Shown here one piece after another: positions 31,086 through 55,443 of a stretch of 64,000 nt of DNA. A model generated the notes under the pieces. That model saw only the letters and a program-made list of their open reading frames with translations, was not told the DNA's origin and searched no databases. The stretch spans positions 133,859-197,858 of the forward strand of contig CACNRI010000003.1 in assembly GCA_902622845.1 (NCBI GenBank). The letters run 5' to 3'. Source of the DNA: an uncultured SAR86 cluster bacterium. Lineage in GTDB: Bacteria > Pseudomonadota > Gammaproteobacteria > Magnimaribacterales > D2472. The stretch's first letter is position 1. Each line of letters starts with the position of its first letter. The position numbers were made by a program, and so were the translations under genes.

Positions 31086-32048
31086 CTAATTATTATATGT
31101 TCTTGTTGTAATAGTAGCTCTTCCCTTCTCTATTGCAATTAAAGATTTACTTTTGAATGAATAATTTTCATAAATCGTATCAGATATTAAATAAAAACTT
31201 TCTGTATTAGTTGAAAAATTATTCATGCGTTTATCAGGTAAGTAGTTTGTAAATGCATCTTTAAATTCTTCAATAGTTTTGAATCCATCAATAGGGTTAT
31301 TCATGATCAAATATTCTGCATCATCTATTGAAATTCCCAAATAAGATGCAACAACAAGAGCGTCCTCTAACTCAAGTGTATTTACATTTATATTTGTTTT
31401 TTCAGAATATGGAATAACACATATGTATTTCTTCAATTCATTTAAATCAAACTCTCTTGAAGCTGGTAAGTTATTTAATTCTGAGAAATCATGAAGAGTT
31501 CTTTTGGATGTATATTGTCTTGGTTCGTTGATTGGGCCTGTATAGAAATAATCTTCATATCCATTTGATCTTGGCTGATCATCATAATCAACCCAATCAA
31601 TAATCTGGTCTATTAATGAATCAATTTGTCTATCTTCATAATTAAGTAATAACAACATATCACTTAAAACATTTATAGATCTATCATTAGGAAGCTTGTT
31701 ATTTTCAGTAGAAATTAATAACGAGTTTAAGTTAAAGCAATTTGACGTATCTACTAATCTGGAGCGAATAAGGAATCCATTACTCTCAAAAAATATTTCA
31801 TCCTTCAATAATTGATCATTTTTTGAAAGATATCCTTTGTTATATCTTAAATTTTGATCGATTAGATCTATGCCAAGACTTTCCATATTTCTTTGAAGTT
31901 GTATAGATGTTGATTGAAATTCAATATATGTTGATCTTTTGATAGATTTAAAAAATATCTCGCCAAGGGATACACTTATTCCAGAAAGAATAAGAACAAT
32001 GAGTAGCACTGAGATTAACACCACCCCTCTTTTATTATCTGTATACAT
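31086..32048 (-). CDS. gspK: T2SS minor pseudopilin GspK
   Basis: RGVVLISVL prepilin site, CFNLN, DWVDYDD, ININT-like motif. Confidence 0.9.
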   Translation of the reverse strand: MYTDNKRGVVLISVLLIVLILSGISVSLGEIFFKSIKRSTYIEFQSTSIQLQRNMESLGIDLIDQNLRYNKGYLSKNDQLLKDEIFFESNGFLIRSRLVDTSNCFNLNSLLISTENNKLPNDRSINVLSDMLLLLNYEDRQIDSLIDQIIDWVDYDDQPRSNGYEDYFYTGPINEPRQYTSKRTLHDFSELNNLPASREFDLNELKKYICVIPYSEKTNINVNTLELEDALVVASYLGISIDDAEYLIMNNPIDGFKTIEEFKDAFTNYLPDKRMNNFSTNTESFYLISDTIYENYSFKSKSLIAIEKGRATITTRTYNN

Positions 32049-32622
32049 AATCTATGTTTGGATCAATAATTATTTCAAAATCTCTGTCATTATCATTTAT
32101 CTCAATTTTCACAAGTTTCGGAATTATAAATGCAGCAGTTTGCCCAGCAGGCCACTCAGTGAACCATCGGTTGTCAATAAGAAACGATATTTCTACATCA
32201 TCAATATTATTGAAAATGACTGAATCTATATAATCATCATAATCATAAGGATCTGCTGTAAAGTAAACTCTTCTAATAAATTTTGTATCATCGAATAAAT
32301 ATTCAATTCTTGAGATAGACGATCTCGAACTATCAATCCTATTGATAAAACTGAGGAAAGTAATTTTCTTATCGGTATTGCTCCCTATAAAATTAGGTAG
32401 CTGATTCCCAAAGTTATCTCGCATTGGTAAATTCACTACTGACATAAGATCTCTTCTTATAGTGCTCACGCCTAAGTTAAATACTTTTATATCATCTACT
32501 TTTGATTTACTTTGATTCCTTAAATCAATTGATGATTGAAGAAAATTTGTAGAAACAATCGCAATTATTGAAAGAATAACTAAAGATATTAATACTTCTA
32601 TTAGTGTAAAACCTTTTTTCAT
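32035..32622 (-). CDS. gspJ: T2SS minor pseudopilin GspJ
   Basis: GFTLIEVL N-methylation motif. Confidence 0.9.
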   Translation of the reverse strand: MKKGFTLIEVLISLVILSIIAIVSTNFLQSSIDLRNQSKSKVDDIKVFNLGVSTIRRDLMSVVNLPMRDNFGNQLPNFIGSNTDKKITFLSFINRIDSSRSSISRIEYLFDDTKFIRRVYFTADPYDYDDYIDSVIFNNIDDVEISFLIDNRWFTEWPAGQTAAFIIPKLVKIEINDNDRDFEIIIDPNIDYVYR

Positions 32623-32985
32623 TTAATTTTTTTTTAAAAACCCCTTAGTTTCATAAATAACTTGGGAGTTATCTTTTTTAGTTATTTGTATTTGATATTC
32701 AATATAAGATTTCATTGGGGCCTCATTAAACGTTTCTTTCCACTCCCACTCATCTCCATAAAACACCAAGGTGCCGCTTCTATTTTTTTGATTAAATGGT
32801 TTTTCTAAAGTATTGATTAAAGAAATCCTGTTATTTGCTATCTCTCTAGCGATTACTCTATTTTCTAAAGAGAAGATTGATAAAGTTGTTGAGCTCAATG
32901 TCTGATAAACCGACATAACAGCGACGCTTAGTATTAAAAGCGATACCGAAACCTCTATTAAGCTAAAGCCTCTCTTAAAATTCAT
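32623..32985 (-). CDS. gspI: T2SS minor pseudopilin GspI
   Basis: GFSLIEV motif, 120 aa. Confidence 0.9.
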   Translation of the reverse strand: MNFKRGFSLIEVSVSLLILSVAVMSVYQTLSSTTLSIFSLENRVIAREIANNRISLINTLEKPFNQKNRSGTLVFYGDEWEWKETFNEAPMKSYIEYQIQITKKDNSQVIYETKGFLKKN

Positions 32986-33475
32986 CAGTTTTTAAGAATT
33001 CTCCTCCATGAGTAAGAACAAAGTTATATTTCTGATTATCATTGTAAAAAGTGAATTTTGCTCCAGTTGTTTCGCCAGATGGATAAAATAAAATATAAGG
33101 CAAATCTAAATTATCATTAGATAGCTTAAATTTAAGACCATCGCTTGTTTCTATTTCTTTTTCAAAATCAATAAATTCATTCCAAGTGTAGCTATAAATG
33201 GGTTTAGTATTTATTTGAATTTCTTCATTAGCTATTTCATAAACAGCTTGTTCATTTGTATTTGCATACCATCCTAAGACTTTTCCACGAATAATGCTTT
33301 CTTGGGAGATTTCAGAAAAGTTTTCTTCTAATGTCCTAGGCGAGTTACTAATATTAACAATATTGGTATTCAAAAGAAGTATTGATGACATCAAGCCAAC
33401 AATTACAATTACAATAAGTAATTCTATTAATGTAAATCCTGGTTTTTTATTTAAGCCAATTACCAAGGTCTGCAT
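32975..33475 (-). CDS. gspH: T2SS minor pseudopilin GspH
   Basis: GFTLIELL motif, ILFYPSGE; start likely ATG 33475 overlapping the gspG end. Confidence 0.88.
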   Translation of the reverse strand: MQTLVIGLNKKPGFTLIELLIVIVIVGLMSSILLLNTNIVNISNSPRTLEENFSEISQESIIRGKVLGWYANTNEQAVYEIANEEIQINTKPIYSYTWNEFIDFEKEIETSDGLKFKLSNDNLDLPYILFYPSGETTGAKFTFYNDNQKYNFVLTHGGEFLKTDEF

Positions 33476-33866
33476 TTTCACCTGTTCCTCCTTCCACTCC
33501 ATCAGCACCTAAAGTGTAGACATCATAGGATGAGTTTTTTAAGCCAGGATACAGATAAAGGTATTCTCTACCCCATGGATCTTGAGGGAAAGACTTTATA
33601 TATCCACCTTCAGGATAAAGTGACGGTCGTTTAAGATCTGACGGAGGAACAACTAATGACTGTATTCCTTGATCAGTAGTTGGGTAAGTTAGCTCATTAA
33701 ATTTATAAAGTTCTAGCGCTTTCTCAATTTGTGAAATATCTGCTCTTACTTTTTCTAAATTTGCTCTTTGGAGAAAAGGAGATACATTAACTGCAACTAC
33801 TGTAGCTAGTATGCCAAGTATCACAATTACTGCCATAAGCTCAATTAAAGTAAATCCTTTTTTCAT
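33447..33866 (-). CDS. gspG: T2SS major pseudopilin GspG
   Basis: GFTLIELM, YPTTDQG, DPWGREY, GADGVEGG. Confidence 0.96.
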   Translation of the reverse strand: MKKGFTLIELMAVIVILGILATVVAVNVSPFLQRANLEKVRADISQIEKALELYKFNELTYPTTDQGIQSLVVPPSDLKRPSLYPEGGYIKSFPQDPWGREYLYLYPGLKNSSYDVYTLGADGVEGGTGENADLGNWLK

Positions 33867-33868
33867 AG

Positions 33869-35062
33869 TTAATTTAATATTAGTGTGTTCATTTGCATTA
33901 TAGGAATAAGTATAGCCATAACGATTAAAAGAATAAATCCACCCATCACAATAATGATTAATGGTTCTATGAGAGATAGGACAGTTGAGCGAGTTGTTTC
34001 AATCTCAGATTTCATAAAGTTAGAAGCTTTTTTGAACATCGGAGTGAGATTGCCAGACCTGTAACCGCTGGAAATGAGTTGGTTAAAGATATCTGGAAAT
34101 ATCTGTTCGCGGGTTAAAGCACGTGAAAAATCAGAACCCTCTTTTACTGACTTTATTATTTTGTTCAGGCGATATTTAAGATAAGCATTATTCAAAACAT
34201 CAGATGTTTCTTTTAGCGCATCATCTAGAACTATTCCTGATGACATCAATAAGTACATAGTACTACTGAATCTTTCAGTCTCAGATTTTAATAAAAATGC
34301 TCCAAATATTGGAATTTTAAGAAATATTCTATGAATATTTATTGTCTTATCAGTACTTCGCAACTTCTTATAATAAAAAAAAGAAACACCTAATATCAGT
34401 AGAATAGACGGGATTATATAAATCATATTAGAAGATATATTCATTAATATTGATGTAAGTAAGGGAAGATCAACACCTGATTTAACGAATTGATTTACAA
34501 CCTGAGGCATTACAAAAGTAAGTAGTGAAATTACTACTACTATTGAAAAAGAAAAAAGAATAAACGGATATGTTAAAGCAGTACGAACTTTCTGATTAAT
34601 AGATAAACTTTCTTCAAGATAATCTGACAATGATTTAAACATCTCAACAAGTCTTCCTGAAGTATCACCAGCTTTAATTAAAGACACATATGTATTATCA
34701 AAAACTTGAGGATAAGCCTCCATAGCATTACCTAGTCTTTTGCCCTGAATTATTTCATCTCTTAAATTAAATAATATATTTTTTAAATCTTTATTTTTAA
34801 CTTGCTCAGCAGTCATTTTTAAAGCCTCATCAATTTGCGCAGCTGCCTCAAGAAGTGTTCCAATTTGCCTAGTAGCAAGAACCAAATCCTTATTTTTGAT
34901 TTTATATCTTTTGGTAGTTTGAGATTTTATTTCTTTAAGTTTGTGTGGTATTAGATTTAGACTTTTTATTTCCTTTCTTGCCAATCTTTCACTTTCGGCA
35001 TTTATAAATCCTGATTGAACCGAGCCTTCAGAATCAAAAGCCTTATAACTATACGAAGGCAT
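33869..35062 (-). CDS. gspF: T2SS inner membrane platform protein GspF
   Basis: Three TMs, ALTYP, SLIEP, AILIPI. Confidence 0.95.
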   Translation of the reverse strand: MPSYSYKAFDSEGSVQSGFINAESERLARKEIKSLNLIPHKLKEIKSQTTKRYKIKNKDLVLATRQIGTLLEAAAQIDEALKMTAEQVKNKDLKNILFNLRDEIIQGKRLGNAMEAYPQVFDNTYVSLIKAGDTSGRLVEMFKSLSDYLEESLSINQKVRTALTYPFILFSFSIVVVISLLTFVMPQVVNQFVKSGVDLPLLTSILMNISSNMIYIIPSILLILGVSFFYYKKLRSTDKTINIHRIFLKIPIFGAFLLKSETERFSSTMYLLMSSGIVLDDALKETSDVLNNAYLKYRLNKIIKSVKEGSDFSRALTREQIFPDIFNQLISSGYRSGNLTPMFKKASNFMKSEIETTRSTVLSLIEPLIIIVMGGFILLIVMAILIPIMQMNTLILN

Positions 35063-36554
35063 CTTCTTTTATATTGTTAGATCTAATGAGCTCATCACAA
35101 GACGTTATACCTTTTATAAGAAGATCTGAGCATGAAGAATTTATAGACGGAGCATTTTTAAATACATAATCCTTAATCTCATTCTCTGACTTTTCGTTAT
35201 GAATCATATCTTTAATGGTTTTATCAACATTTACGGACTCGGCAACAGCAATTCTTCCTCTGTATCCAGTACCGTTACACTTATCACAGCCCTTGTGATC
35301 ATAAACTTCAAGATTATGCTTAAGACCAAACAAATCAGCAATGTCTTTGTTAATAGTGGTTTTAACTTTGCAGCTATCACATAACCTTCTTACAAGTCTT
35401 TGAGAAATTACTGTTTTCAAACTTGAAGATATTAAAAATGATTCTATTCCCATATCTCTCAACCTAGTTATAGCTCCAACAGCGCTATTTGTGTGTACTG
35501 TTGATAAAACTAGATGGCCCGTTAAGCTAGCCTGAATAGCAATTTGGGCAGTTTCTGTGTCTCTTATTTCTCCCACCATCACGACATCAGGATCTTGCCT
35601 GAGCATTGCGCGTAATCCCGTAGCGAAAGAGTAACCAGTCTTTTGATTAACCTGTGTTTGGCCAATGCCCTTCAGGGTATATTCAATTGGATCCTCAACA
35701 GTAAGAATATTTTGAGACGAGTCACTAAGATCTCTAAGACCAGCATAAAGTGTTGTAGTTTTTCCTGAACCTGTTGGTCCAGTGACTAGAATAATACCTT
35801 CTGATTCACTTAAAGACTTCTTGTAGGTTGAAAGTATTGTTCGCGGTAAACCAAGATCATTAATATTGATTTGTGCTGATTGTTTATCTAAGAGTCTTAA
35901 TACAATTCTTTCTCCATATGTAGATGGTAAAGTTGAAACACGAACATCAACATTTTTATCTCCTAGTGATAATGAAACTCTTCCATCCTGTGGCAACCTC
36001 CTTTCAGAAATATCAAGTTTTGAAATTATCTTTAATCTGGCAATAATTAATGGTGTGAGTCGAGGATCTTGAGATAAAACTTCTTGCAGTATTCCATCTA
36101 TCCTATATCTAACTGATAAAGAATCTTCATAGGGCTCAAAATGAATATCAGATGCTCTTAACTTAATTGCCTGACTTAAAATACCATTTATAAGCTTTAT
36201 GATTGGGGCATCATTGCTCCCGCTTAACAGATCTTCTGTAGCTGTAATTGTTCCTGCGAAAGTTTTAAGATCAAAATTATCTTTAAGTTCTTCTGAAAGT
36301 TCTGAGTTTTGAGAAATTACAGAAAAATTTGACGTTATAAGGCTATTTAACTCCTCAGCATTACAAATTTCTACTTCGAATGATTTACCTATATATCTTA
36401 ATAGCTCCTGATGTATATCAAAGCTTAGCTCTGAAGTTGAATAAATCTTAATTTCACCATTTTTATCTATACCAAAGATATTATTCTGTTTTACGAAGTC
36501 GTATGGAAGAATGCTTGATATTTCAGCCATAACATCATTGGGTATATCGGACAT
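35049..36554 (-). CDS. gspE: T2SS ATPase GspE
   Basis: GPTGSGKTTT, EDPIEY, RQDPDVVMVGEIRD, tetracysteine motif. Confidence 0.96.
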   Translation of the reverse strand: MSDIPNDVMAEISSILPYDFVKQNNIFGIDKNGEIKIYSTSELSFDIHQELLRYIGKSFEVEICNAEELNSLITSNFSVISQNSELSEELKDNFDLKTFAGTITATEDLLSGSNDAPIIKLINGILSQAIKLRASDIHFEPYEDSLSVRYRIDGILQEVLSQDPRLTPLIIARLKIISKLDISERRLPQDGRVSLSLGDKNVDVRVSTLPSTYGERIVLRLLDKQSAQININDLGLPRTILSTYKKSLSESEGIILVTGPTGSGKTTTLYAGLRDLSDSSQNILTVEDPIEYTLKGIGQTQVNQKTGYSFATGLRAMLRQDPDVVMVGEIRDTETAQIAIQASLTGHLVLSTVHTNSAVGAITRLRDMGIESFLISSSLKTVISQRLVRRLCDSCKVKTTINKDIADLFGLKHNLEVYDHKGCDKCNGTGYRGRIAVAESVNVDKTIKDMIHNEKSENEIKDYVFKNAPSINSSCSDLLIKGITSCDELIRSNNIKEDAFV

Positions 36555-38402
36555 CTATTTATCTTTTGTGAGGTCGATTAACTTAGATTGCTGCTTAAGT
36601 AACTGTTCTGCTTTTATGAAGTTATACTTTTCAGTCGAAATCTGAGAAACCGATTCTGAGTCAACTAAAATCTTAGGTCTTAAAAAGACCATTAAATTCT
36701 TTTTAACTTTTGATTCACTGGATGATTGAAATAATTTACCTAAAACTGGAATTGAACCTAGGACAGGAACTCTCTGAATATCTTCCTGTATATCTTCATC
36801 AACCAAACCACCCAAAACAATAATTTGATTGTTATCTACCAATACAGTTGTTTCAATTGTTCTTTTATTTGTAATTAAATCAGTAGTCCCGGTTAAAGGG
36901 CCAGCGACACCAGATACTTCCTGTTTTATCTCCAAGATAACTGAATTTCCCTCATTAATTTGAGGCTTTACCGACAGCTTTATACCTACCTCTTCTCTTG
37001 AGGTTGTCCTGAAGGGATTTGTATTATTTGAACCTAAACTTTCACCTGTTGTTATAGGAATTTCCTGACCAATAACAGTAGAAGCTTCCTCATTGTCCAT
37101 TGCCAATAATGATGTAGTAGTCAAGATATTGGAATTCTTATCTGCATCTATGGCATTAATGATCGCTATCATGCTGTCATCATCCTCTGATATTCTTCCA
37201 ATACCTGCAATTATTCCTTGAGAGTTTAAAAGTGAATTAGCTGCAATATTTGAAAAATTTGCATTATCACCTGATTCAATCGCAGATCCTGTTAAACCTA
37301 ACAGATCAGGTCCTGTTCCGTTCTGAAATCTAGTAATCCCAATAGGTATTTCTCCATCCTCTGCACCGGCAAAGATAGTTTCTACACCCAAACTTCTTGC
37401 GGCTGTTTCTGAAAGCTCAACGACTATAGCTTCTACTAATACTTGAGCCCTTCTAATATCAAGTTTAGATATAAGATTTTTTATAGTTGCTATATTTGAT
37501 TCATCACTGGACACTACGACAGAATTAGTTGGTGAATGGTGTGTAACAATTGGTTTTTCAGATTCTGAAGAAATAAATCTTGAAGCTATAGAACTAACTA
37601 TTCCAGCAACCTCCTCAGCATTGGCATATTTAAGGTATATAACAGCAACTGAACCTTCACTAATTGCATCAGCATCTAATTGCTTGAGTGTTTCTTTAAT
37701 TATGTTTGTTGTAATTGAGTTGGCAGATACTATTACAGAATTTGATGCACTAAAGGAAATTGCAACAAAATTATTAATTGTTGGATTGTTTTGAGCTTTA
37801 AGTTTTTCTAAAATTCTTACCGCCTCAACAGATGAAAGATTTTTTAAATCTATAATGGAGACAGCTGCGGTATTATCTTGATCAAGGGCTAATATTAAAT
37901 CAGCTATTCTTTCAACATTACTTGCTCTATCAACAATTAAAATAGAATTTATAGACGCAATGCTTGAAACGTTTGCTTGTCTTCCAGCAATAGGTTTGAG
38001 CATTGGCAATAACTCAATTGAAGATCGGTTATTAAGTCCAATAATTCTTGTTACAAACTCCCCATCAGAATCAGCTGAATTACTATCTCTAGTTGCTTCA
38101 TTTTCTGGAACGATTCTTACAAAATTATCATCATTTATAGCGCTAAATCCATTTACTTGAATAGTTCTTAAATACACATCCCAAACTTCATCTGATGAGA
38201 GTGATGAATTAGAAAAAATAGTCACTTTACCTTTGACTCTTGGATCAAGAATGATTGTTTTTCTTGAAAAATTTGCAATATCTTGGGTGACTTTTTTAAT
38301 ATCTACATCTTCATAATTAAGAATAAATGATTCTTGGGAAAAAGCACTTAGGCTAATAAGAGTTAAATTAAATATAAAGATTTTTTTTATAATACTAATC
38401 AT
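36555..38402 (-). CDS. gspD: T2SS secretin GspD
   Basis: LDPRVKGKVT N0 domain, DIRRAQVLVEAIVVE, VPVLGSIPVLGKLF secretin motif; short C-terminus. Confidence 0.96.
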   Translation of the reverse strand: MISIIKKIFIFNLTLISLSAFSQESFILNYEDVDIKKVTQDIANFSRKTIILDPRVKGKVTIFSNSSLSSDEVWDVYLRTIQVNGFSAINDDNFVRIVPENEATRDSNSADSDGEFVTRIIGLNNRSSIELLPMLKPIAGRQANVSSIASINSILIVDRASNVERIADLILALDQDNTAAVSIIDLKNLSSVEAVRILEKLKAQNNPTINNFVAISFSASNSVIVSANSITTNIIKETLKQLDADAISEGSVAVIYLKYANAEEVAGIVSSIASRFISSESEKPIVTHHSPTNSVVVSSDESNIATIKNLISKLDIRRAQVLVEAIVVELSETAARSLGVETIFAGAEDGEIPIGITRFQNGTGPDLLGLTGSAIESGDNANFSNIAANSLLNSQGIIAGIGRISEDDDSMIAIINAIDADKNSNILTTTSLLAMDNEEASTVIGQEIPITTGESLGSNNTNPFRTTSREEVGIKLSVKPQINEGNSVILEIKQEVSGVAGPLTGTTDLITNKRTIETTVLVDNNQIIVLGGLVDEDIQEDIQRVPVLGSIPVLGKLFQSSSESKVKKNLMVFLRPKILVDSESVSQISTEKYNFIKAEQLLKQQSKLIDLTKDK

Positions 38403-38775
38403 TTTTAAACCTATTAATTATTGTAAATTCTTTACCCTGAAATTCAAAAATAATTATGTCATTGTTAACTTTAACAAGCTTATATTTATTTTCGAGCAAT
38501 TCATTTAGCTGAACAACATATTCCTTTCCTCCTTTTTTAACAATTACTGAGGTATTAATATCTCCTAATCTAACTGCAGCAAGCTCATAATTAAAGCTTG
38601 TAGGAGGAGTATTTGAAATCTGATTTGTTGAAACTTGTTTTATCTCCATTGGTCTTACAATAGAAAAGGCCTCAGTCTTGGTGGAGTTAATTAGCATGTA
38701 CATATTTATAAAAAGATACAGAGCAATAGATACAGCCAGTAAATATATTAAATATTTAAGATTAATTTTATTCAT
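38395..38775 (-). CDS. gspC: minimal GspC-like protein (TM plus HR domain)
   Basis: N-terminal TM, short beta-rich domain, first gene of the gsp operon; no PDZ domain. Confidence 0.65.
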   Translation of the reverse strand: MNKINLKYLIYLLAVSIALYLFINMYMLINSTKTEAFSIVRPMEIKQVSTNQISNTPPTSFNYELAAVRLGDINTSVIVKKGGKEYVVQLNELLENKYKLVKVNNDIIIFEFQGKEFTIINRFKND

Positions 38776-38783
38776 AATAAAAA

Positions 38784-38810
38784 AAATGAGCTACTAAGTG
38801 TAGCTCATTT
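38784..38810 (-). terminator. intrinsic terminator/attenuator between the TonB-dependent receptor and gspC
   Basis: Minus strand AAATGAGCTAC-ACTTA-GTAGCTCATTT followed by a U run ending a few nt before the gspC ATG. Confidence 0.75.
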
Positions 38811-38829
38811 CATAGAAATATACCTCTTA

Positions 38830-41445
38830 CTAAAAGGAGATTTTAAATCCTAGCGAGGCTGATGTTCCAAGATCATATTGATCATATATTGCAATATTTC
38901 TCATTGATGCATAGTACTCCTCATCTAGTAAATTTCTTAGCTCAAGAGATAGTTTTAACTCAAATTCAGGGTATGAATAAATTTTTGAGAATGCAAAATC
39001 AACTAATAGTGGAGGTTCTTCAATAATATCCGGTAAAACATCAATACCTCTAGCTCTTACCCTATCACTAACATAGTTAACAATTAGGGTTGCTTGAGTT
39101 TGGTTTTGTAAATTATCTAAACCGATTTGAAAGTTTGCAATTGTATCTGATTGACCCTGCAATCTGGTATCTCTGCCATTCGCAAGAAGACTTTGAGCAT
39201 CTACAACAGTACCAATACTGTTTATATAGGTATCTCCAGGATTTACAATTACTTCAGATTCAGTTTCCGTATAATTAAACTTAACAAGTAAGTCGTTAGG
39301 TGAATCCATAATTGCTTCGAATACTTGCTCATATTCGATTTCAAATCCATTGATTTCAGCCAGAGGAACGTTTTGGTAAGAGGTAATAATTAAATCACCT
39401 GACTCATTTACAGTTTCTTCGATAGGATTAAGAATTTCCTTTGAGAAAATACCAGCTGTAAAAAACTGATTAAAGCCAAAATAGTATTCAAGTCTTAAAT
39501 CAATATTGTCAATCTCACTATTTTCTAAATATAGTGAGCCAGCTATTACTCTGTCAGTATCAACATCTATAAACAGCGTTGGAGATAGTTCCCTGAAGGT
39601 TGGCCTAGCAATTGTCTGAGAAGCGCCCAATCTAATTTGAAGGTTTTCATCAAATTCAGGGAGATATGTTAATGTCATTGAAGGTAGCTGATAATCTTCT
39701 TCTATTGATTTATCAATTAAGGAATCAACACCTGAAAATAAATCATATGTATTAACTTGCTGCAGACCTTCTTCTTGTCTAACTCCAGCAGTAAATTCAA
39801 AATTATCTCCAATTGATGATTCAACACTAATGTATGCTGAATCAATTTCCAATAATCCTAAGTACCCAGCTGGCGATGAACTTGCAGTATTCTCGATTAC
39901 CAGCAACCTGTTAGGATCAAAGTTTTGGTCAGCAAAGATATAATCTATTCTATTATCTAAGCCATCTTGAGGTAATGGACCACCAGCAGCCAGAAATCTA
40001 AAGCTTCTAACTTCGGCTGATCTATCATTTTCAACGCTTTCAACTCCAGTTCTTAAAAATGTTGACTCACCAAGGGGTATCTCTAGATCTAAAACAACAT
40101 TTGTATTTTGATCTTGGACCATACTAAATTGGGTTTGGTTCCTACCTGTATTAACATCATATAAGTAGACTCCGTCTTCATCTCCATCTTCATAGAAAGC
40201 AACTCTTTCATATGGAGAATCTCTTTCAGCCCTTCCATCACCCAAACTTACATCTAAAGTCCAGTTATTTTCAAAAGTCTTATTATAATTAAACTGATGA
40301 TTTATTAGCTCTCTTTCATAAAATTCTAGATAATCTTCACGGACATCAGCTGAATCACTTGAATCATATCCTTGGAGGATACGTGCTTCTTTTGTTCCTT
40401 TATGAATGTATAGCCCAGTATATTTTATTTCAGATGAATCAGTTTCAACACCAACAACACCCATTGCATATGCTGTAACATCATTTGATGTACTTTTAAA
40501 AGTTTTGTCATTTTGAACAACAACATCTACAGTACCATCACCTTGGTTTTGTAAATCACCAGTTTGCCTGATTCCTTCTTGTGTATCCCATGAACTTTTT
40601 AAACCTGCAGTAAACATGAAGCCCATTGTTGCACTTGGGTCATCAATAATTTTATCAATTCCTAAACCATCAAGACTATCTCCATAAGTCAAACTATAAG
40701 ATTGATCTAGAGGAACATCTCCTGATTGTAAAACCCATAGTTTTGAATTTTCAAAATCTCGACCAAAATTAGCTAATTGCGTTGAATTAAAGTTGGACCT
40801 ATCAAGTTTAAGATTGTTATTAATAGCTCTCTTAATAGTATCTGGTATAGCTCTAGTCCCATCATCATAACCAAAACTATCATCGCTACCACCGTCATAC
40901 ATTAGTCCATCATCTTTTAACGACGTAGCAGAGTTATAACCTGCTGAAGCTGAAAATTCAAGGATCCTATCTAATGGAACAGCTTTTGTATTTATCTCAA
41001 TTATACCTCCTCCAAACTCACCAGGCATGTCAGCTGAATAGGTTTTTTGCACTACAGATGACTCAATGATACTTGTAGGAAAAAGATCAAGAGGTACGAC
41101 TCTCCTGAGTGGTTCTGGACTAGGTAGATTAAGACCATTAAGTGAAGCAGATGAATATCTGTCACCTAAACCTCTTACATATACATATTTACCTCGCACT
41201 AGACTAAGACCCGTAAGTCTTGTAAGGGCGATAGCAATATTGTCATCACCAGTTCTTTCGATTTCTGATGAATCTAATATTGCTGAAATCTCGGATGTAT
41301 CTCTTTTCTCATCTGGTATAAAAGATCCACTTACTACCACTTCTTCAATTTCTTGAGCATTGATAAACAATGGAGAAACTATTATGAATGGTAAAGCAAA
41401 CTTTAAAAAAACCCAGATTTTGTTTGTTGTTTTTGTTGATTTCAT
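38830..41445 (-). CDS. TonB-dependent receptor
   Basis: EEVVVSG TonB box, VYVRGLGDRYS...LPSPEPLRRVVPLDLFP plug, C-terminal Phe; start ATG 41445 after GGAG. Confidence 0.93.
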   Translation of the reverse strand: MKSTKTTNKIWVFLKFALPFIIVSPLFINAQEIEEVVVSGSFIPDEKRDTSEISAILDSSEIERTGDDNIAIALTRLTGLSLVRGKYVYVRGLGDRYSSASLNGLNLPSPEPLRRVVPLDLFPTSIIESSVVQKTYSADMPGEFGGGIIEINTKAVPLDRILEFSASAGYNSATSLKDDGLMYDGGSDDSFGYDDGTRAIPDTIKRAINNNLKLDRSNFNSTQLANFGRDFENSKLWVLQSGDVPLDQSYSLTYGDSLDGLGIDKIIDDPSATMGFMFTAGLKSSWDTQEGIRQTGDLQNQGDGTVDVVVQNDKTFKSTSNDVTAYAMGVVGVETDSSEIKYTGLYIHKGTKEARILQGYDSSDSADVREDYLEFYERELINHQFNYNKTFENNWTLDVSLGDGRAERDSPYERVAFYEDGDEDGVYLYDVNTGRNQTQFSMVQDQNTNVVLDLEIPLGESTFLRTGVESVENDRSAEVRSFRFLAAGGPLPQDGLDNRIDYIFADQNFDPNRLLVIENTASSSPAGYLGLLEIDSAYISVESSIGDNFEFTAGVRQEEGLQQVNTYDLFSGVDSLIDKSIEEDYQLPSMTLTYLPEFDENLQIRLGASQTIARPTFRELSPTLFIDVDTDRVIAGSLYLENSEIDNIDLRLEYYFGFNQFFTAGIFSKEILNPIEETVNESGDLIITSYQNVPLAEINGFEIEYEQVFEAIMDSPNDLLVKFNYTETESEVIVNPGDTYINSIGTVVDAQSLLANGRDTRLQGQSDTIANFQIGLDNLQNQTQATLIVNYVSDRVRARGIDVLPDIIEEPPLLVDFAFSKIYSYPEFELKLSLELRNLLDEEYYASMRNIAIYDQYDLGTSASLGFKISF

Positions 41446-41475
41446 TTTTACTCCCAAATAGGTTTTATAAAGTTA

Positions 41476-44406
41476 TTAGTTAAGTTTTATTGATCCAGGT
41501 ACTGTCCATCCTTTGTACCAATTATCAGTCGCTCCACTAACTGCACCTATGTATGTAGTTTCTTCAAAAAATCCATCGGCATTGTATATTGCAGGAACAG
41601 CTGTAACCGCAGCACCACTTTCTGCAGAACCGTTCACAACTCCACTAAGTGTATTTACATAAGTACCACCACCAGATGTAGCTGCATATAAGTTGGTATC
41701 AGGAGATTCCTTAACAATTGCCTCAATTGCTGATACTGCAACACCGTCGTTAGTTTTAATAAATCCTGGGCAATCAAATGCTACAGAGTTCATAGAGAAA
41801 TTAGGTGTTATGGCGCCATCAAGAGGTGTTTCTGTTTTAGTAGTCTCTATACAATTTGTTGATTTGCCTGTAACTTCGTTAAGAACAGCAGCAACTCCAT
41901 TATAATATTGACCTGATACACCCTCTTTTAACTTAAATATATCGTCATGACCTCTACTTACAAAAGTAAAGTTAGCAACAATTGGATTTGATCTAGGCTC
42001 ACTTAAATAACCAACAGCACTATCACTGTTAACATTATCTGATTCGACAATATGATCACCTTTATCATTAGCCTGTTGAACTATAACGTATTGAAGTCTT
42101 CCTTGATAACCCCAGTCAATATCTAAGTTATCATCATCTGCTCCTGTACAGATCAGATGTTTTACATCAACTGTTCCACCAAAGAACTCGACGCAATCAT
42201 CTGCGTTGTTATGAACTTGAATGTATTCAACCGAAGTACCACTCCCAACACCACCAAAAGTGATTCCATTGAGCTCATTACCTGGGAATACCTCATAACC
42301 TGCATACTGAACTCTTAGATATTTGAGTGCTCCACTACTATCAGTTGGTATTTCACCTCCCATTACATCTCCGGCTGATCCTTCAACCTCTCTCTCACAT
42401 GGAGTGGTTCTAACTCCTGTAGAAGCGTATGAACACTTATTAATTGGTGATTGACCAAGAATGACTAAGCCTCCCCAAAGTCCTCGTGTTAAGTTTACGT
42501 CTGCTTGACCAAGAATATCTTGTCTTCCAGTCATCACGATTGGAGCAGATCTTGTTCCTACAGCATTAATATCCGATCCTCTCATAATTACTAAATAATC
42601 ATTACCTGATTCACCAAAAACTGTTACACCAGGATTAATAGTTAATGTAGCTGAGTCGCCGTCTGAAGCAGTACCATCTGCTCCAACATCAACACCAATT
42701 TGAACTTTACCATCAAGCTTATAATAGTTTCCTGCTACTAGAGTTAAATCATCTGTTATAACTCCACTTAAGTCACAAACCTTTCTACCTAAAAGAATTT
42801 CAGATTCAAGAGTTCCAGCGGGACACTCAGGATCGGTAAATAGACCAACAGTCCAACCTGCAGCCCAGTTATTTTCTGCATCTGATCCAGGTGAAAAAGC
42901 ACCAACATAATCAGTTGCTGAAAACCAATTATTAACAACGTAATTCCCATCATCGTATCCAGGACATAGTTCTGTTAAAGCTCCGGCTGCATGAGTTCCA
43001 ACCGCACACATATCGTCAATTTCTGATATCGAAAATGCGCTTGGAACAGCAGATTCAGTATCACCCAAGAAGTATGTATCCACCATTGTATTCGACCCAA
43101 AGTTTAAATTAGTCGATCTTGATGCAAGTGATGCTGCAAATTCTGCATCTGTTGCTGCATCAAACTTTACAGGAAAGTCTGTTTCATTGCCCGAATCAAA
43201 AAATATTGAATGATGAGCAATTTTGTCTGTTAATGCACCATCTTGAATAGTTTCTAAAAATGTACCTTCAACGAGATTCTGTGATGCTTGGTTTACAACA
43301 ATACCATTGATATAAATTCCAGATACACCCTCTTTATACTTAAGTGGTTCGTCAGCTCCTCCTCCAATAAAGGTAAAGTTGGCAACCATGGGTTGTGATC
43401 TGGGCTCTGTTAAGTAACCTACTGCTGCATCAGAATTTGTATTGTCTGATTCTACAATATGATCTCCTGCGCCAACATTTTGTTTAACAACAACAAATTG
43501 CATTTTTCCTTGATAACCCCAATCGATATCAAGATTATCATCACCTGCATTAGTGCAAACTAAATGTTTTACGTTTACAGTTCCACCAAAAAACTCTACG
43601 CAATCATCTTGGTTGTTATGAACTTGAACATAGTCCACCTTTGTTCCATAACCAACACCGCCAAAGGTAATACCATTTAATTCATTGCCTGGGAATATTT
43701 CTTTACCTGCGTATTCAACTCTAACGAAGTTTAAAACTCCAGAGTTATCATCTGGAGAAGCTCCACCCATAATAGCAGTAGTAGAACCTTCAACCACTCT
43801 CTCGCAAGCAGCAGTTCCTCTAACATCATTACTACACTTATTAATTGGCGCTTTACCTAAAATAACTATTCCACCCCAAAGACCACTCGCACTGTCTGGG
43901 TTAGTTAAAGATCCATCAATCGCAGAAGCTGCAGTAAATCTAATAGGTTTGGATCTGGTTCCGTTGGCAACAATTTTTGACCCTCTTTGAACAACAATAT
44001 AATCATCAGGTGTTTTTTGAGCAAGCGTTACGCCAGCTGGAATTGTTAATGTTGCAGCGACTCCTCCAGATTTTGTTCCATCTCCACCCATATCGACACC
44101 AACATCAACTAAGCCGGATAGACGATACATTACATCAGTTGTAAGTGTTAAATCTGAAGTTATTGGACCAACAATTGCGCATAATGTATTACCACCAAGA
44201 GTTGAATCATTAGAAATGAATGGAGAAGAAGGACAAGTTCCCGTCAGTAAATTACTATTACCGCCCCCACCACCGCCATCATCACTTGGGGGTGATAATG
44301 GACCCAGCTCACCAGGAGATGCAATATTAGTATCACCACCTCCACACGAAGCTATAATGAAAATTGAAAAAATTAAAAATAAGTTTTTAGTTGATTTTAG
44401 GCACAT
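41476..44406 (-). CDS. 976-aa outer-membrane lipoprotein made of two tandem ~460-aa predicted beta-helix modules (ElpS-like)
   Basis: Lipobox IASC (Cys21), AGAGG SD, Gly/Pro linker, two homologous modules each with YAG..FPGNELNGITFGGVG...DDCVEFFGGTV...DDNLDIDWGYQG. Confidence 0.85.
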   Translation of the reverse strand: MCLKSTKNLFLIFSIFIIASCGGGDTNIASPGELGPLSPPSDDGGGGGGNSNLLTGTCPSSPFISNDSTLGGNTLCAIVGPITSDLTLTTDVMYRLSGLVDVGVDMGGDGTKSGGVAATLTIPAGVTLAQKTPDDYIVVQRGSKIVANGTRSKPIRFTAASAIDGSLTNPDSASGLWGGIVILGKAPINKCSNDVRGTAACERVVEGSTTAIMGGASPDDNSGVLNFVRVEYAGKEIFPGNELNGITFGGVGYGTKVDYVQVHNNQDDCVEFFGGTVNVKHLVCTNAGDDNLDIDWGYQGKMQFVVVKQNVGAGDHIVESDNTNSDAAVGYLTEPRSQPMVANFTFIGGGADEPLKYKEGVSGIYINGIVVNQASQNLVEGTFLETIQDGALTDKIAHHSIFFDSGNETDFPVKFDAATDAEFAASLASRSTNLNFGSNTMVDTYFLGDTESAVPSAFSISEIDDMCAVGTHAAGALTELCPGYDDGNYVVNNWFSATDYVGAFSPGSDAENNWAAGWTVGLFTDPECPAGTLESEILLGRKVCDLSGVITDDLTLVAGNYYKLDGKVQIGVDVGADGTASDGDSATLTINPGVTVFGESGNDYLVIMRGSDINAVGTRSAPIVMTGRQDILGQADVNLTRGLWGGLVILGQSPINKCSYASTGVRTTPCEREVEGSAGDVMGGEIPTDSSGALKYLRVQYAGYEVFPGNELNGITFGGVGSGTSVEYIQVHNNADDCVEFFGGTVDVKHLICTGADDDNLDIDWGYQGRLQYVIVQQANDKGDHIVESDNVNSDSAVGYLSEPRSNPIVANFTFVSRGHDDIFKLKEGVSGQYYNGVAAVLNEVTGKSTNCIETTKTETPLDGAITPNFSMNSVAFDCPGFIKTNDGVAVSAIEAIVKESPDTNLYAATSGGGTYVNTLSGVVNGSAESGAAVTAVPAIYNADGFFEETTYIGAVSGATDNWYKGWTVPGSIKLN

Positions 44407-44555
44407 AAGAATTCCTCTTAAAAAAATTAATTAATATATTTAATGATTTCTTAGTGAACTTTAGATTAGTTTTATGAAAAATTTAATTTACGTTTTGGAA
44501 ACAAAATCAATACGATTTTATGACAAAAATATATTTTTTGTGACGAGAATGTTAA

Positions 44556-46319
44556 CTATTTGCTATGTAAAGGAAGAGTAAACCAAAAAATACTGCCATT
44601 TTTTTTGTTGCGATTTCTAGCACCATACTTGCCTCCCAAACTAATAGCTAAATTCTTTACAATAGCAAGACCAAGACCACTTCCAGATTTTTGACTTGCT
44701 CTGGCTTCAGGAGTTCTATAAAAACGATTAAATATAAAGTCTCTATCAGCATCGCTTATACCGGTACCTGAATCCTTAACTGAAATTTTAATAGAATCTT
44801 CAATAACTTTAGTGGTTATCTTTACTTCACCCCCGTTATTAGCCTTTGAATACTTAATTGCATTATCAAGAAGATTTGTAAGAATTCTCTCTATTGCTGC
44901 TTTATCCCCTAAAACATGAGGGCAATTACATTTATCAAATCTAATCTCAATGCCTTTATTTTTAGCAGATGTATAATGAGATCTATTGACGGTGTTAATT
45001 ATTTCACAAACATCTAATTCTTTAAGATCTAAATGCAATTCACCGTAGTCTATCCTTGATAAATCTATCAAATCACTTACCAAACCAGAAATCCTCTCTG
45101 CATTATGCATAATTGCTTTTGAAAAAACTTTGGCATCTTTTTTATTGTCTATTGCTCCCTCTAGTAATGTTTCAGCATTAGCAAATATGACACTTACAGG
45201 AGTTCTTAGCTCATGCGAAAGATTAGATATAAAATCTCTACGCATTGATGCATTCTCTCTTAATTGGGTAACATCATGAACAACGAGGATATACTCGTTA
45301 GTAGTTTTTGCTCTATTCATAGAACCAAGTATCCATTTAACATCACCATTTTTAAGTTCTATTTGAAACTCATAATCGAATCTTCCTTCCTTATCAACAT
45401 TTTCAAACATATTCTTAAGTGCTTTTATATTTAAATCTCTTATATTTTTCTTTACTGAGGAGCTAATTTCTAAGATTCTTAGAATGCTATCGTTTTCATA
45501 AGTGATTTTTCCGTCATTATCAGTAACAAAGACTCCTTCACCTAAATTATCTAACACTGATCCAAATTGATCTCTTTGTTTAGCGATCATGCTAATTTGG
45601 GTTCTTAAATTCTTAGATATCTCAGAGATATCTCTTGCAACCGACCCAATTTCATCAGATCTTTGTGTCGGTAGAGCCTTCAAGTTCTTTTTTTTCTGAT
45701 CTTTTAATAGTCCTCTAGTTGCATTCTCAAGCTCTCTTAAGTTATTCCATGTAAAATTGGCAGCAATGGCGCTTGAAAAGAAAGCTGCAATAAGTCCAAC
45801 AATTGCAATCAGAGTTACAGAAAGTGATAGACCATCGAATGCTCCTTGAACATAGGTATAAGGAACTGCAATTCGAATAAAACCAACACCCTCTTGACCT
45901 TTCAAAGCCAAATATAGCAATTCCTTATTAACTGTATCACTGTATCTAATCGACCACCCAACATTATTGAGCTTTGCATCAATAATTTCAGGCCTATTGG
46001 AATGATTTTCTACAACACTGATTTGACTAGTTGAAAGATTTGAATCTCCTAAAACTTCACCACTGTCTTTGATAATTGTAACTCGAGAGTCAATAGATTC
46101 TCCAATTCTGTCTGCAACGATATCAGCTTTTTCTATTGAATCTAATTTTGAGACTGGGCCGATCGAAATACTTGCTAATTCTGCTTGTTTTCTTAATTCA
46201 AGAACAATCTGATTTTCAAGAGTTTTTGATAAATCTCTTTCGGCTACTATATAAGAAAGGAAAATTCCTACAAAAAATATTCCAAAAACGATTAAAAAGA
46301 TTTGGGATCGAATACCCAT
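44556..46319 (-). CDS. PhoR-like sensor histidine kinase (periplasmic sensor, HAMP, PAS, HisKA, HATPase)
   Basis: SHELRTP H box, NLLDNAIKY, DSGTGI, GSGLGL; two TMs flanking ENHSNRPEI...RYSDT sensor domain. Confidence 0.85.
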   Translation of the reverse strand: MGIRSQIFLIVFGIFFVGIFLSYIVAERDLSKTLENQIVLELRKQAELASISIGPVSKLDSIEKADIVADRIGESIDSRVTIIKDSGEVLGDSNLSTSQISVVENHSNRPEIIDAKLNNVGWSIRYSDTVNKELLYLALKGQEGVGFIRIAVPYTYVQGAFDGLSLSVTLIAIVGLIAAFFSSAIAANFTWNNLRELENATRGLLKDQKKKNLKALPTQRSDEIGSVARDISEISKNLRTQISMIAKQRDQFGSVLDNLGEGVFVTDNDGKITYENDSILRILEISSSVKKNIRDLNIKALKNMFENVDKEGRFDYEFQIELKNGDVKWILGSMNRAKTTNEYILVVHDVTQLRENASMRRDFISNLSHELRTPVSVIFANAETLLEGAIDNKKDAKVFSKAIMHNAERISGLVSDLIDLSRIDYGELHLDLKELDVCEIINTVNRSHYTSAKNKGIEIRFDKCNCPHVLGDKAAIERILTNLLDNAIKYSKANNGGEVKITTKVIEDSIKISVKDSGTGISDADRDFIFNRFYRTPEARASQKSGSGLGLAIVKNLAISLGGKYGARNRNKKNGSIFWFTLPLHSK

Positions 46320-46322
46320 TAT

Positions 46323-47021
46323 TTAATCGGGGTTTCTTGAAAACCTGTAGCCAACACCCCGTATGGTTTGAACATGTTTACCCATAACGCCCATTTTTTC
46401 ACGAAGTCTTTTAACATGAGTGTCAACAGTTCTGGTGGTGATGTGAGCTGAATAACCCCATACATCTGAAAGGAGCTGATCCCTTGTCTGTACTCTTCCT
46501 CTTCTATCTAGAAGATGTTTAAGTAATTTAAATTCTAATGCGGTTAGAATTATTTCATCATCATTAATAAAAACCTCATGAGAATCCTCATTTATCGAAA
46601 GAATTCCAAATGTTTCGATTTTAGATGATGTGTTTTGAGTCATATCTTTTGAATTTCTTTTTAAGATAGCTTTTATACGAAGCATTAGCTCCCTCACACT
46701 GAAAGGCTTGGTTACATAATCATCAGCACCTAATTCAAATCCAACAACCTTATCTACTTCATCATCTTTTGCAGTGACTATAATTATTGGAATATCGCTA
46801 TAAGCATTTGAAGATTTGAGTTTCTTACAAAAATCTAGTCCAGATCCATCTGGGAGCATAAGATCAAGGATGATCAAAGAAATATTATTAGAAGAAATAT
46901 ATGATTCGGCCTCAGTTAAATTTAGTGCACTTAGGGGTTTTAAACCTTCATTAGCAATATTATATGAAACAGTTTTATTTATATCAGGTTCATCTTCTAC
47001 TACAAGTATGTGGTGGGACAT
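46323..47021 (-). CDS. OmpR/PhoB family response regulator (probable phosphate regulon regulator)
   Basis: VVEDE, LDLMLP, ADDYVTKPF, winged helix TRTVDTHVKRLREK...RGVGY. Confidence 0.9.
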   Translation of the reverse strand: MSHHILVVEDEPDINKTVSYNIANEGLKPLSALNLTEAESYISSNNISLIILDLMLPDGSGLDFCKKLKSSNAYSDIPIIIVTAKDDEVDKVVGFELGADDYVTKPFSVRELMLRIKAILKRNSKDMTQNTSSKIETFGILSINEDSHEVFINDDEIILTALEFKLLKHLLDRRGRVQTRDQLLSDVWGYSAHITTRTVDTHVKRLREKMGVMGKHVQTIRGVGYRFSRNPD

Positions 47022-53752: not shown

Positions 53753-54559
53753 CTACTTATCGGTGTCATAAACAATATTATGAGTGTTGTAAACCATGTG
53801 AGCTTGGTATGTATTTGCACCTGAGCATGACTCAATATGCTTAGATCTCTCTTCATATACACCTGAGTCTCTTAGTAAAGTTGTATAGTCCCTATATGAA
53901 CTAATCATATTTGCCCTACTTTCTGCATTATACCAATGTGTCATCATGATGAAATCCCAATCAGGCTCCTCCTGAATACCCCTATAAGGTGTGAAGAAAC
54001 TGACGCCCCATCCTTTGAGCCCGAAATCTCTTGCTAGTTTTTCTTGTTTAGCATAAAGGGCTTTTAATTCTGAAATATCAGCATCATCAGTTAACTTACA
54101 TGTTCTCCAGTCAGTAAATAATCTTTCATCTCTTTCCTCCATAGGTATTCGAACACGAAGAACTGAATGAAATCTCATTGATGAGGTTGACTTACACTCA
54201 CCAGCAACTTGAGCCGAAACACCATTCTTTTCTGCCCATTCTGGATAATCATTCATGTAGGCACCCCATTCTATATATTGATCTTGACCAGTTGGCCAAT
54301 TACCCCACATTACGTAATCATATTCCTGATCATTGTCCCAAATAGGAGTGAGATTAATTCTATTGTATTGAAGATCATTTTCTTTTAAGAAGTCCTCATA
54401 TGGAGCTTGTTCTGCAAGTAAATCATTATAGGTCTTTCCTTCATTAAAATTACAAAAGAAAAACTCTGATCTATGCACATATTGTTCTGAGGTTTCAGCA
54501 AAAGCTGAGACCGAACTCATTAATAGAGTAATAGTTAATAAAGATTTATACATGATCAC
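53753..54559 (-). CDS. secreted hypothetical protein, two-repeat alpha/beta (NIPSNAP-like) architecture, paralog A
   Basis: Signal peptide (SAFA/E), internal duplication, four Cys. Confidence 0.75.
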   Translation of the reverse strand: MIMYKSLLTITLLMSSVSAFAETSEQYVHRSEFFFCNFNEGKTYNDLLAEQAPYEDFLKENDLQYNRINLTPIWDNDQEYDYVMWGNWPTGQDQYIEWGAYMNDYPEWAEKNGVSAQVAGECKSTSSMRFHSVLRVRIPMEERDERLFTDWRTCKLTDDADISELKALYAKQEKLARDFGLKGWGVSFFTPYRGIQEEPDWDFIMMTHWYNAESRANMISSYRDYTTLLRDSGVYEERSKHIESCSGANTYQAHMVYNTHNIVYDTDK

Positions 54560-55314: not shown

Positions 55315-55443
55315 TTATATCCTCCGTAAAAATTTATTATTGATGAGAAAAACCTCTCCCCTCAGATGTTTCAAATCTCTTATATAGATTGTTTCAAGAA
55401 GAAAAGTAAAAATCAATATATAGGTTAAAAAAACACTTAAAAA

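Follow-up and report, generated by a model that had tools for sequence, protein, structure and literature searches.

In this study, we have analyzed a 64,000-nucleotide stretch of DNA from an uncultured SAR86 cluster bacterium (GenBank assembly GCA_902622845.1, contig CACNRI010000003.1, positions 133,859 to 197,858 of the forward strand), referred to here as the window and numbered from its first letter; its GC content is approximately 33%. The gene of interest is an open reading frame (ORF) on the minus strand, at positions 41476 to 44406, that encodes a 976-residue lipoprotein. It lies in a series of minus-strand elements whose order is a phoB-type response regulator gene, a PhoR-like kinase gene, the lipoprotein gene, a TonB-dependent receptor gene, a terminator-like hairpin, and the gsp genes of a type II secretion system (T2SS). 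Taken together, the data make it reasonably probable that the product is a two-module phosphate-starvation surface lipoprotein of the ElpS (Beta_helix_4) family that forms a fixed pair with the receptor encoded downstream. The parts of the lipoprotein gene are as follows.

44344 to 44406, minus strand: lipoprotein signal peptide, residues 1 to 21, with the lipidated Cys21, read from the sequence and laid out as in ElpS (LAGC lipobox at residues 17 to 20)
44236 to 44343, minus strand: tether, residues 22 to 57, a D-x-x-[IV]-[AS]-S-P-G motif followed by a Gly/Pro/Ser-rich disordered linker (predicted local distance difference test score, pLDDT, below 50 at residues 1 to 51)
about 42832 to 44244, minus strand: beta-helix module 1, residues about 55 to 525 (hmmsearch domain at residues 7 to 525; pLDDT mostly 80 to 95 in the AlphaFold2 model)
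41479 to 42831, minus strand: beta-helix module 2, residues 526 to 976 (hmmsearch domain at residues 526 to 969; single-module AlphaFold2 model)
43444 to 43683, minus strand: acidic cluster of module 1 (E242, N244, D267, D268, E271, D289, D290, D293, D295, D315, E319, and D321), on four successive coils
42037 to 42276, minus strand: acidic cluster of module 2 (E711, N713, D736, D737, E740, D758, D759, D762, D764, D784, E788, and D790), in columns that match those of module 1

The ORF is preceded by a good match to a Shine-Dalgarno sequence (AAGAGGAA), and its N-terminus (MCLKSTKNLFLIFSIFIIASC) carries the IASC lipobox, with Cys21, that had been noted in a preliminary description of this DNA. 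The same description claimed a tandem duplication, and when the protein is split at residue 525, its halves are indeed 50% identical across 459 columns (BLASTP E value, 2e-134), a similarity that, judged from the sequences, exceeds chance by far. Both core peptides that it quoted are found exactly as given, at residues 236 to 300 in module 1 and 705 to 769 in module 2. Each module also opens with a Cys pair (C58/C76 and C528/C544) and closes with a W-x-x-G-W-T-V motif (NNWAAGWTV at residues 512 to 520 and DNWYKGWTV at residues 961 to 969), as had been described. The mature protein has a computed isoelectric point (pI) of 4.2, and its net charge is approximately -68; the nearest named relative, at 74% identity, is a protein from a "SAR86 cluster bacterium."

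The protein had also been likened to ElpS of Caulobacter. We recovered the elpS locus of Caulobacter vibrioides DSM 9893 by means of the cloning primer given in Text S1 of the original ElpS study (PMC2996285); the encoded protein has 512 residues and, as published, an LAGC lipobox at residues 17 to 20. In BLASTP alignments, ElpS is 35% identical to module 2 over 440 residues (E value, 3e-68) and 34% identical to module 1 over the whole module (E value, 5e-51). Precomputed matches to Pfam family PF28492 (Beta_helix_4) are present on proteins 98% identical to the lipoprotein, on proteins 95% identical to ElpS, and on all of the homologues found, near and distant. Our own Pfam and NCBIfam scans were essentially empty because PF28492 is newer than the library used: the lipoprotein matched none of the families in a library that lacks PF28492, and a Pfam scan of 13 diverse family members to an E value of 10 gave a single match, to Beta_helix (E value, 0.087). 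Based on the BLASTP E values, the common PF28492 assignment, the orthology of the receptors, and the shared elpS-receptor-gsp order, homology to ElpS and synteny with the Caulobacter locus are established at the sequence level, and the earlier comparison was well founded.

Like ElpS (CC0170/CCNA_00168 in Caulobacter crescentus), the lipoprotein has a lipobox, an SPG motif, a Pro/Gly-rich tether, and a link to the Pho response; however, the two proteins differ in several respects. ElpS has one module in 512 residues, whereas the SAR86 protein has two in 976 residues; the latter has DDC and additional Cys pairs, whereas ElpS has DDG; phoBR lies directly upstream of the SAR86 gene, unlike the situation at elpS; and the hosts are a low-GC marine gammaproteobacterium and a freshwater alphaproteobacterium, respectively. 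Our search of the literature on PF28492 and ElpS-type proteins found no functional study beyond the 2010 ElpS paper.

The genes and elements adjoining the lipoprotein gene are as follows.

46323 to 47021, minus strand: phoB-type response regulator (TIGR02154 PhoB, E value of 1e-69 over the full length, under the cutoff at 234 versus 296 bits; Response_reg and Trans_reg_C)
44556 to 46319, minus strand: PhoR-like sensor histidine kinase with N-terminal sCache-like and PAS domains (HisKA, HATPase_c, PAS_9, and sCache_like)
44506 to 44555, minus strand: candidate Pho-box-like direct repeats (GTTAACATTCTCGTCACA and TTGTCATAAAATCGTATT) in the 149-nucleotide gap between the phoR and lipoprotein genes (weak evidence)
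38830 to 41457, minus strand: cognate TonB-dependent receptor, CC0171 orthologue, with a Plug domain and a start 18 nucleotides past the lipoprotein stop
38783 to 38811, minus strand: terminator-like hairpin, with a 12-bp stem and a T run, which separates the receptor gene from gspC (read from the sequence)
29524 to 38775, minus strand: T2SS genes gspC, -D, -E, -F, -G, -H, -I, -J, -K, and -L (Pfam and NCBIfam) and a putative gspM

The receptor is 32% identical to CC0171 over its full length (E value, 6e-115) and matches TIGR01782 at 3e-59, under the cutoff; a search of the PDB with the receptor gave no relative. At all 10 loci that we compared (the window, Caulobacter, Henriciella, three other SAR86 genomes, Novosphingobium, a Halieaceae contig, and two further lineages), a TonB-dependent receptor is encoded directly downstream of the ElpS-family gene. 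These ElpS-linked receptors form a single orthologous group, with mutual scores of 224 to 1493 bits, and stand well apart from the phytase-linked receptors, for which the corresponding scores are approximately 50 to 80 bits.

The lipoprotein is unexceptional within its family, which is known and very large, with 5,597 clusters (50% identity) at E values of <1e-3 and 1,692 at <1e-30; a lipobox-like motif is present in 80 of the 139 family representatives that begin with Met. Members have one to five modules, and the acidic site is kept in all of them. Of the top 150 representatives, 106 are two-module proteins, compared with 15 that have a single module, 20 with three modules, and 7 with four or five; the list is biased toward multimodule proteins because module scores add up. 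Modules are usually closer to their partners in the same protein than to the modules of other lineages (identities within one protein are 75% in P0108 of Henriciella, 70% in P0124, and 51% in the SAR86 lipoprotein), which points to repeated duplication or concerted evolution. Between SAR86 clades, the identity is 70% for module 1 against module 1 and 75% for module 2 against module 2, versus 51% for module 1 against module 2. The SAR86 modules are therefore positionally orthologous; the duplication is old in this group, and both copies have been maintained. The idea that the doubling is a special trait of the genome from which the window derives was rejected, given that the two-module form dominates the top representatives and that the SAR86 duplication is old. 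In this sense, the locus adds no new kind of system; the two-module form is common.

Conservation was assessed in 330 modules, which were taken from the 150 representatives (50% identity) of greatest similarity, together with reference proteins, and aligned to the module hidden Markov model. The core residues of the acidic cluster are conserved at 93 to 99%, and the near-invariant positions are W177-G-G, D220-x-S-G, E242-x-N244-G, D267-D268-x-x-E271-x-F-G-G, D289-D290-x-x-D293, Q303, E319-x-D321, N343, and N367. Both modules of the SAR86 lipoprotein hold every one of these positions, as does ElpS except at 244-245, where Q-S stands in place of N-G. The hexad D267/D268/E271/D289/D293/E319 is complete in 316 of the 330 modules, including both modules of the lipoprotein. 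The DD pairs noted in the preliminary description are kept in both copies, D267 D268 and D289 D290 in module 1 corresponding to D736 D737 and D758 D759 in module 2. Its term "GDDC-type" for these Asp clusters is a misnomer in detail. The acidic residues are family-wide, but the third residue of "DDC" is G in 271 modules and C in 12, so the family consensus is DDG and the Cys is lineage specific. In the SAR86 lineage, C269 and C738 are probably paired with C284 and C753 as disulfides.

AlphaFold2 was run with a 27-sequence alignment. The model of the whole lipoprotein has a mean pLDDT of 84, with residues 1 to 51 disordered, and that of module 2 alone has a pLDDT of 83 and a predicted template modeling (TM) score, pTM, of 0.88. 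Both models are all-beta, with short strands that recur every 22 to 26 residues; the strands ITFG, VEFF, LDID, and VESD are spaced at 24, 22, and 26 residues. When the models were compared with the PDB by means of Foldseek, every match was a right-handed parallel beta-helix protein, and the matches comprised polysaccharide lyases (PL6, PL1, and PL3), glycoside hydrolases (GH110, GH49, and GH28), the epimerases AlgG and AlgE4, and phage tailspikes. The beta-helix fold, a guess in the preliminary description, is supported by the all-beta models, the coil period, and these exclusively beta-helix matches and agrees with the Pfam name of the family. With the two-module model, the best E values were 1.7e-4 to 3.5e-5, and with a single module the best was 0.013, at TM scores of no more than 0.33 and identities of 7 to 13%; matches this weak mean that no mechanism is transferable from any solved relative. 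Sequence and profile searches of the PDB with the lipoprotein likewise gave no relative. Because the matches to known beta-helix enzymes and tailspikes are only weak, the models indicate that the modules form a distinct right-handed beta-helix family without a close solved relative.

In the models, ITFG, VEFF, LDID, and VESD are predicted to lie on one sheet, on four successive coils. Since strands of the same sheet on four coils line up, the residues at strand position 2 (T, E, D, and E) and those preceding the strands (N, DD, DD, and D) should form an outward acidic strip. The DD motifs are near-invariant across the family and, by the strand pattern of the models, would face outward. Acidic residues on consecutive coils of one sheet are also found in the Ca2+ sites of pectate lyases and in GH28-type Asp triads, and two beta-helix domains are found in the PL6 enzyme AlyGC; the PL1, PL3, and PL6 lyases, the GH28, GH49, and GH110 hydrolases, and the phage tailspikes share the fold class of the lipoprotein.

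These likenesses raise the alternative that the protein is a true enzyme, either a beta-helix inverting glycoside hydrolase or a metal-dependent phosphodiesterase, that would cut a polysaccharide bearing phosphate or phosphonate groups, or a polymer resembling teichoic acid, into fragments of a size that the receptor can accept. Asp triads are typical of the beta-helix hydrolases GH28, GH49, GH87, and GH110, and the two Asp-Asp pairs and the Glu/Asp on consecutive coils resemble them; moreover, the polar site residues are near-invariant, hydrolases are among the top Foldseek matches (GH110 8yk3, with a Foldseek probability of 0.89; GH49 3wwg; and GH28 3jur), and the best NCBIfam match of the receptor is TIGR01782, whose studied members import sugars. 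We nevertheless regard an enzyme of this kind as rather unlikely, since the ten conserved acidic residues far exceed the requirement of a hydrolase, the Foldseek E values are not significant, the island has no carbohydrate-processing gene, and the occurrence of as many as five intact modules in tandem is a pattern seen more typically with binding modules. In addition, none of the columns in the 330 modules is occupied by Lys, Arg, or His at 80% or more, the best being R141 (74%) and K280 (58%, or 74% for Lys plus Arg). A beta-elimination lyase is therefore disfavored, and a metal phosphodiesterase would be without its typical His ligand.

Two specific enzyme classes fit the protein poorly. For a beta-helix lyase of the PL1, PL3, PL6, or PL9 type, the conserved Lys or Arg that serves as the Bronsted base beside the Ca2+ site is missing, and there was no sequence or profile match to a lyase in the PDB. 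Of the GH28-type motifs NTD, GDD, GHG, and RIK on consecutive coils, the DD pairs are the only shared feature, with no equivalent of GHG or RIK, and the Pfam scans gave no Glyco_hydro_28 match even at an E value of 10.

Farther out, the window encodes PPX, PPK2, a PHO4-type carrier, a GDPD phosphodiesterase, a prepilin peptidase, and a PhoD-like phosphatase, as well as a beta-propeller phytase with its own receptor (receptor, 23244 to 25757; phytase, 22163 to 23344); it is a phosphorus-scavenging island. In three other SAR86 genomes, the orthologues are flanked by the same set of phosphorus genes, and phoBR, PPK2, PPX, PHO4, and phytase genes recur near the pair in several lineages. The PhoD-like phosphatase has a signal peptide; the GDPD protein has no obvious export signal. 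Processing of polyphosphate in the periplasm through PPX and PPK2 was considered and dropped, as neither protein carries a signal peptide, and their presence therefore says nothing specific about the ligand.

It can be argued that this neighborhood is coincidental and that the protein acts at the surface as an adhesin or coat or is carbohydrate active in a general way, without a specific part in the acquisition of phosphorus. The beta-helix is common in adhesins, antigen 43 and PfbA are among the weak Foldseek matches, one source names relatives "trimeric autotransporter adhesin," and some loci (L007) have no obvious phosphorus genes nearby. However, the link to phosphate starvation is experimental in Caulobacter (PMC2996285, PMC11208175), the phosphorus-gene neighborhood recurs in unrelated lineages, and an adhesin would need neither an invariant acidic site nor a dedicated receptor; we consider this explanation very improbable.

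For the phosphate-starvation lipoprotein that we favor, control of the gene by the Pho system is likely. The best NCBIfam matches of the upstream kinase are PnpS, PhoR_proteo, and Bacteroidetes PhoR, every one of them under the cutoff. The repeats in the gap before the lipoprotein gene (GTTAACA-TTCT-CGTCACA and TTGTCAT-AAAA-TCGTATT) are phased at 11 bp and overlap a promoter-like TTAACA-16-TATATT sequence (-35/-10), and in orthologous SAR86 promoters the same position is occupied by CGTAAC repeats that are phased at 11 bp and more distinct. A scan of the window for Escherichia coli-type Pho boxes gave one site only, which is not at the lipoprotein gene, and a scan for the SAR86 type (TGTAACA-N4-TGTAACA, with up to 3 mismatches) gave arrays at 25800 and 57588 and none upstream of the lipoprotein gene. 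Because both scans missed them, the Pho boxes of the lipoprotein promoter are tentative.

Several other observations concern the regulators and secreted products of the island. The kinase (44556 to 46319) has 587 residues and an extracytoplasmic sCache-like domain and can be aligned over its whole length with the Bacteroidetes-type PhoR model; the kinase at the same position in three other SAR86 genomes has 450 residues and no Cache match. The scan for Pho-box-like repeats gave 11 matches versus 2.5 expected, and none of 100 shuffles gave as many. At 57588 to 57627, three to four Pho-box-like repeats, phased at 11 bp, form a clean array (TGTCATATTAATGTAACATAAATGTAACATATAAGACACA) upstream of an ORF (57164 to 57577, minus strand) for a secreted, Cys-containing protein of 137 residues with no Pfam match; its orthologues in three other SAR86 genomes (50 to 55% identity) lie beside the ElpS-like gene in divergent orientation, behind a similar repeat array, and the product is probably a small Pho-regulated secreted protein. 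Another Pho-box-like sequence, at 25800 to 25817 (CGTCACATATTTGTAACA), lies upstream of the receptor and beta-propeller phytase pair, a second receptor-linked phosphorus module. Between the genes for the prepilin peptidase and the PhoD-like phosphatase, three successive ORFs (53753 to 56175, minus strand) encode proteins of 243 to 268 residues with signal-peptide-like N-termini and no Pfam match, which could be further secreted components of the island. At three other SAR86 loci (L009, 13972 to 17032; L010, 13917 to 14977; and L011, 13985 to 15045), the ElpS-receptor pair is followed by genes for a MIP channel and a low-molecular-weight phosphatase/arsenate-reductase-like protein, which may be an arsenate detoxification pair that accompanies phosphate uptake; it is absent at the corresponding place in the window.

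The relevant experiments come from Caulobacter, where elpS (cc0170), the receptor gene cc0171, and gspC-N lie in that order and ElpS is a lipoprotein of approximately 50 kDa (Le Blastier et al. 2010, PMC2996285). Phosphate starvation induces ElpS, which is lipidated and bound to the outer membrane; external proteinase K degrades it also when the T2SS is absent, and its release into the medium, with cleavage at residue 38, occurs only with the T2SS and protease activity (PMC2996285). In a 2024 study, the Caulobacter T2SS was placed within the PhoB regulon, and ElpS was cited just as a protein that enhances the activity of alkaline phosphatase outside the cell (PMC11208175). An ElpS homologue, XAC0692, is found in the xcs T2SS cluster of Xanthomonas (review, PMC7777525).

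In the window, the gsp genes gave profile matches to T2SSC, GspD, T2SSE, T2SSF, T2SSG, N_methyl, T2SSI, T2SSJ, T2SSK, and GspL_C; the ORF at 29524 to 29982 has no profile match and is called gspM by position only. The order elpS-receptor-gspC..M is common to the window and Caulobacter; among the 10 loci, the T2SS adjoins the pair only in the window, Caulobacter, and Henriciella, lies approximately 7 kb away in one SAR86 genome, and is not adjacent at loci L007, L008, L009, and L012. The preliminary description saw the lipoprotein as cargo of the neighboring T2SS. This proposal survives in part, in that the Caulobacter T2SS is needed for the release of ElpS; however, it is not needed for exposure (PMC2996285), and the adjacency is variable. 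PulA of Klebsiella, a T2SS-adjacent surface lipoprotein that is partly released, offers a comparison. The residue at position +2 is Asp in PulA and Gly in the lipoprotein, and the folds are unrelated. The route followed by PulA differs as well, since ElpS is exposed without the T2SS and only its release is T2SS dependent (PMC2996285).

The tether deserves separate mention. Its SPG-type motif, D-x-x-[IV]-[AS]-S-P-G (44281 to 44343, residues 22 to 42), follows the lipidated Cys and precedes a Pro/Gly/Thr-rich linker; its conservation extends across SAR86, Caulobacter, Luteimonas, and others, and it is also kept in single-module relatives. As the released form of ElpS has been cleaved within the linker, at residue 38, the motif could be a surface-sorting or processing signal. 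At two loci (L007, 9585 to 9986, and L013, 1224 to 1595), the lipobox, SPG motif, and linker are annotated as a gene of their own, encoding 123 to 133 residues, upstream of a three-module main ORF, whereas in the relative P0113 this region is fused to the main ORF; for the separate gene, either the split is conserved or a problem of gene calling or a frameshift has recurred.

The Caulobacter data also bear on the possibility that the acidic strips capture Ca2+, Fe3+, or another cation and load or stabilize secreted metallophosphatases of the PhoX/PhoD type, with the receptor importing the metal. Overexpression of ElpS raised the alkaline phosphatase activity of the supernatant although ElpS itself was inactive, and the authors proposed the activation of another phosphatase (PMC2996285); furthermore, the lipoprotein is very acidic, and the island encodes a PhoD-like phosphatase with a signal peptide. 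Nonetheless, deletion of elpS did not lower phosphatase activity (PMC2996285), the strict pairing with a receptor at 10 of 10 loci suits the hand-over of a ligand better, and there are no known metal-uptake regulator or metal transporter genes nearby. Metal handling of this kind is, in our opinion, decidedly unlikely.

Returning to the phosphate-starvation lipoprotein and its receptor, the following sequence of events can be envisioned. Low phosphate would activate the upstream PhoR-like kinase and PhoB, switching on the lipoprotein-receptor unit. The precursor would be exported, lipidated at Cys21, as its sequence predicts, and set on the outer face of the outer membrane, by analogy with ElpS, on a flexible tether of approximately 35 residues. 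There, each beta-helix module would show a strip of approximately ten conserved Asp, Glu, and Asn residues on one sheet. Given the pI of 4.2 and the charge of about -68, an anionic ligand would need bridging cations; the strip most likely holds Ca2+ or Mg2+ and, via the metal, would bind and possibly cleave an anionic phosphorus-bearing polymer, with the two modules providing avidity. The captured or trimmed ligand would pass to the receptor and be drawn into the periplasm by TonB energy, where the PhoD-like phosphatase, and possibly the phytase, would free phosphate for the PHO4-type carrier; the GDPD protein may act elsewhere. By analogy with Caulobacter, the adjacent T2SS probably governs release or shedding and would not be strictly needed for exposure.

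As to the nature of the ligand, we suggest only tentatively that the ElpS module is a Ca2+- or Mg2+-loaded groove that captures, and perhaps trims, a phosphorus-rich polyanion, for example, inorganic polyphosphate, metal-phytate, or the phosphorylated or phosphonylated glycans of dissolved organic matter in the sea, so that the module and its receptor would constitute a widespread, unrecognized route of TonB-dependent phosphorus import that is kept in a bivalent version in the streamlined genome of SAR86; this is a possibility, and not the expected outcome.

Functional analogies for such a pair are found in SusD/SusC of the Bacteroidota and in TbpB/TbpA and LbpB/LbpA of Neisseria, in which a surface lipoprotein encoded beside a receptor binds the ligand first and then passes it on. 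The analogy is functional only: SusD, which has an all-alpha fold resembling tetratricopeptide repeats (TPR-like), and TbpB, which has a beta-barrel/handle fold, have no sequence or fold relationship to the lipoprotein. The proteolytic release of LbpB from the Neisseria surface has been cited as comparable to that of ElpS (PMC2996285).

Several points count against our interpretation. The family has no member with a demonstrated ligand, metal, or activity, and refolded or immunoprecipitated ElpS had no phosphatase activity on p-nitrophenyl phosphate (pNPP), while deletion of elpS left the phosphatase activity of the supernatant unchanged (PMC2996285). In Caulobacter, cc0171 is expressed constitutively, unlike elpS (PMC2996285), which loosens the picture of one operon. 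The Pho boxes upstream of the lipoprotein gene are weak and failed the 3-mismatch scans; the Foldseek matches are weak as well (for one module, an E value of 0.013 and TM scores of no more than 0.33); and the outward orientation of the acidic strip was deduced from strand periodicity.

In conclusion, ElpS was described in 2010, and the SAR86 locus now provides a compact entry point to the binding or action of ElpS proteins, in which the candidate site is sharply delimited and consists of D267/D268/E271/D289/D293/E319 and the equivalent residues of module 2. The family is large (about 5,600 clusters), is tied to one receptor lineage at the loci examined, and recurs in marine phosphorus-scavenging islands, and SAR86 bacteria are among the most abundant in the ocean. 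The identity of the ligand would define a new route of phosphorus uptake across the outer membrane.

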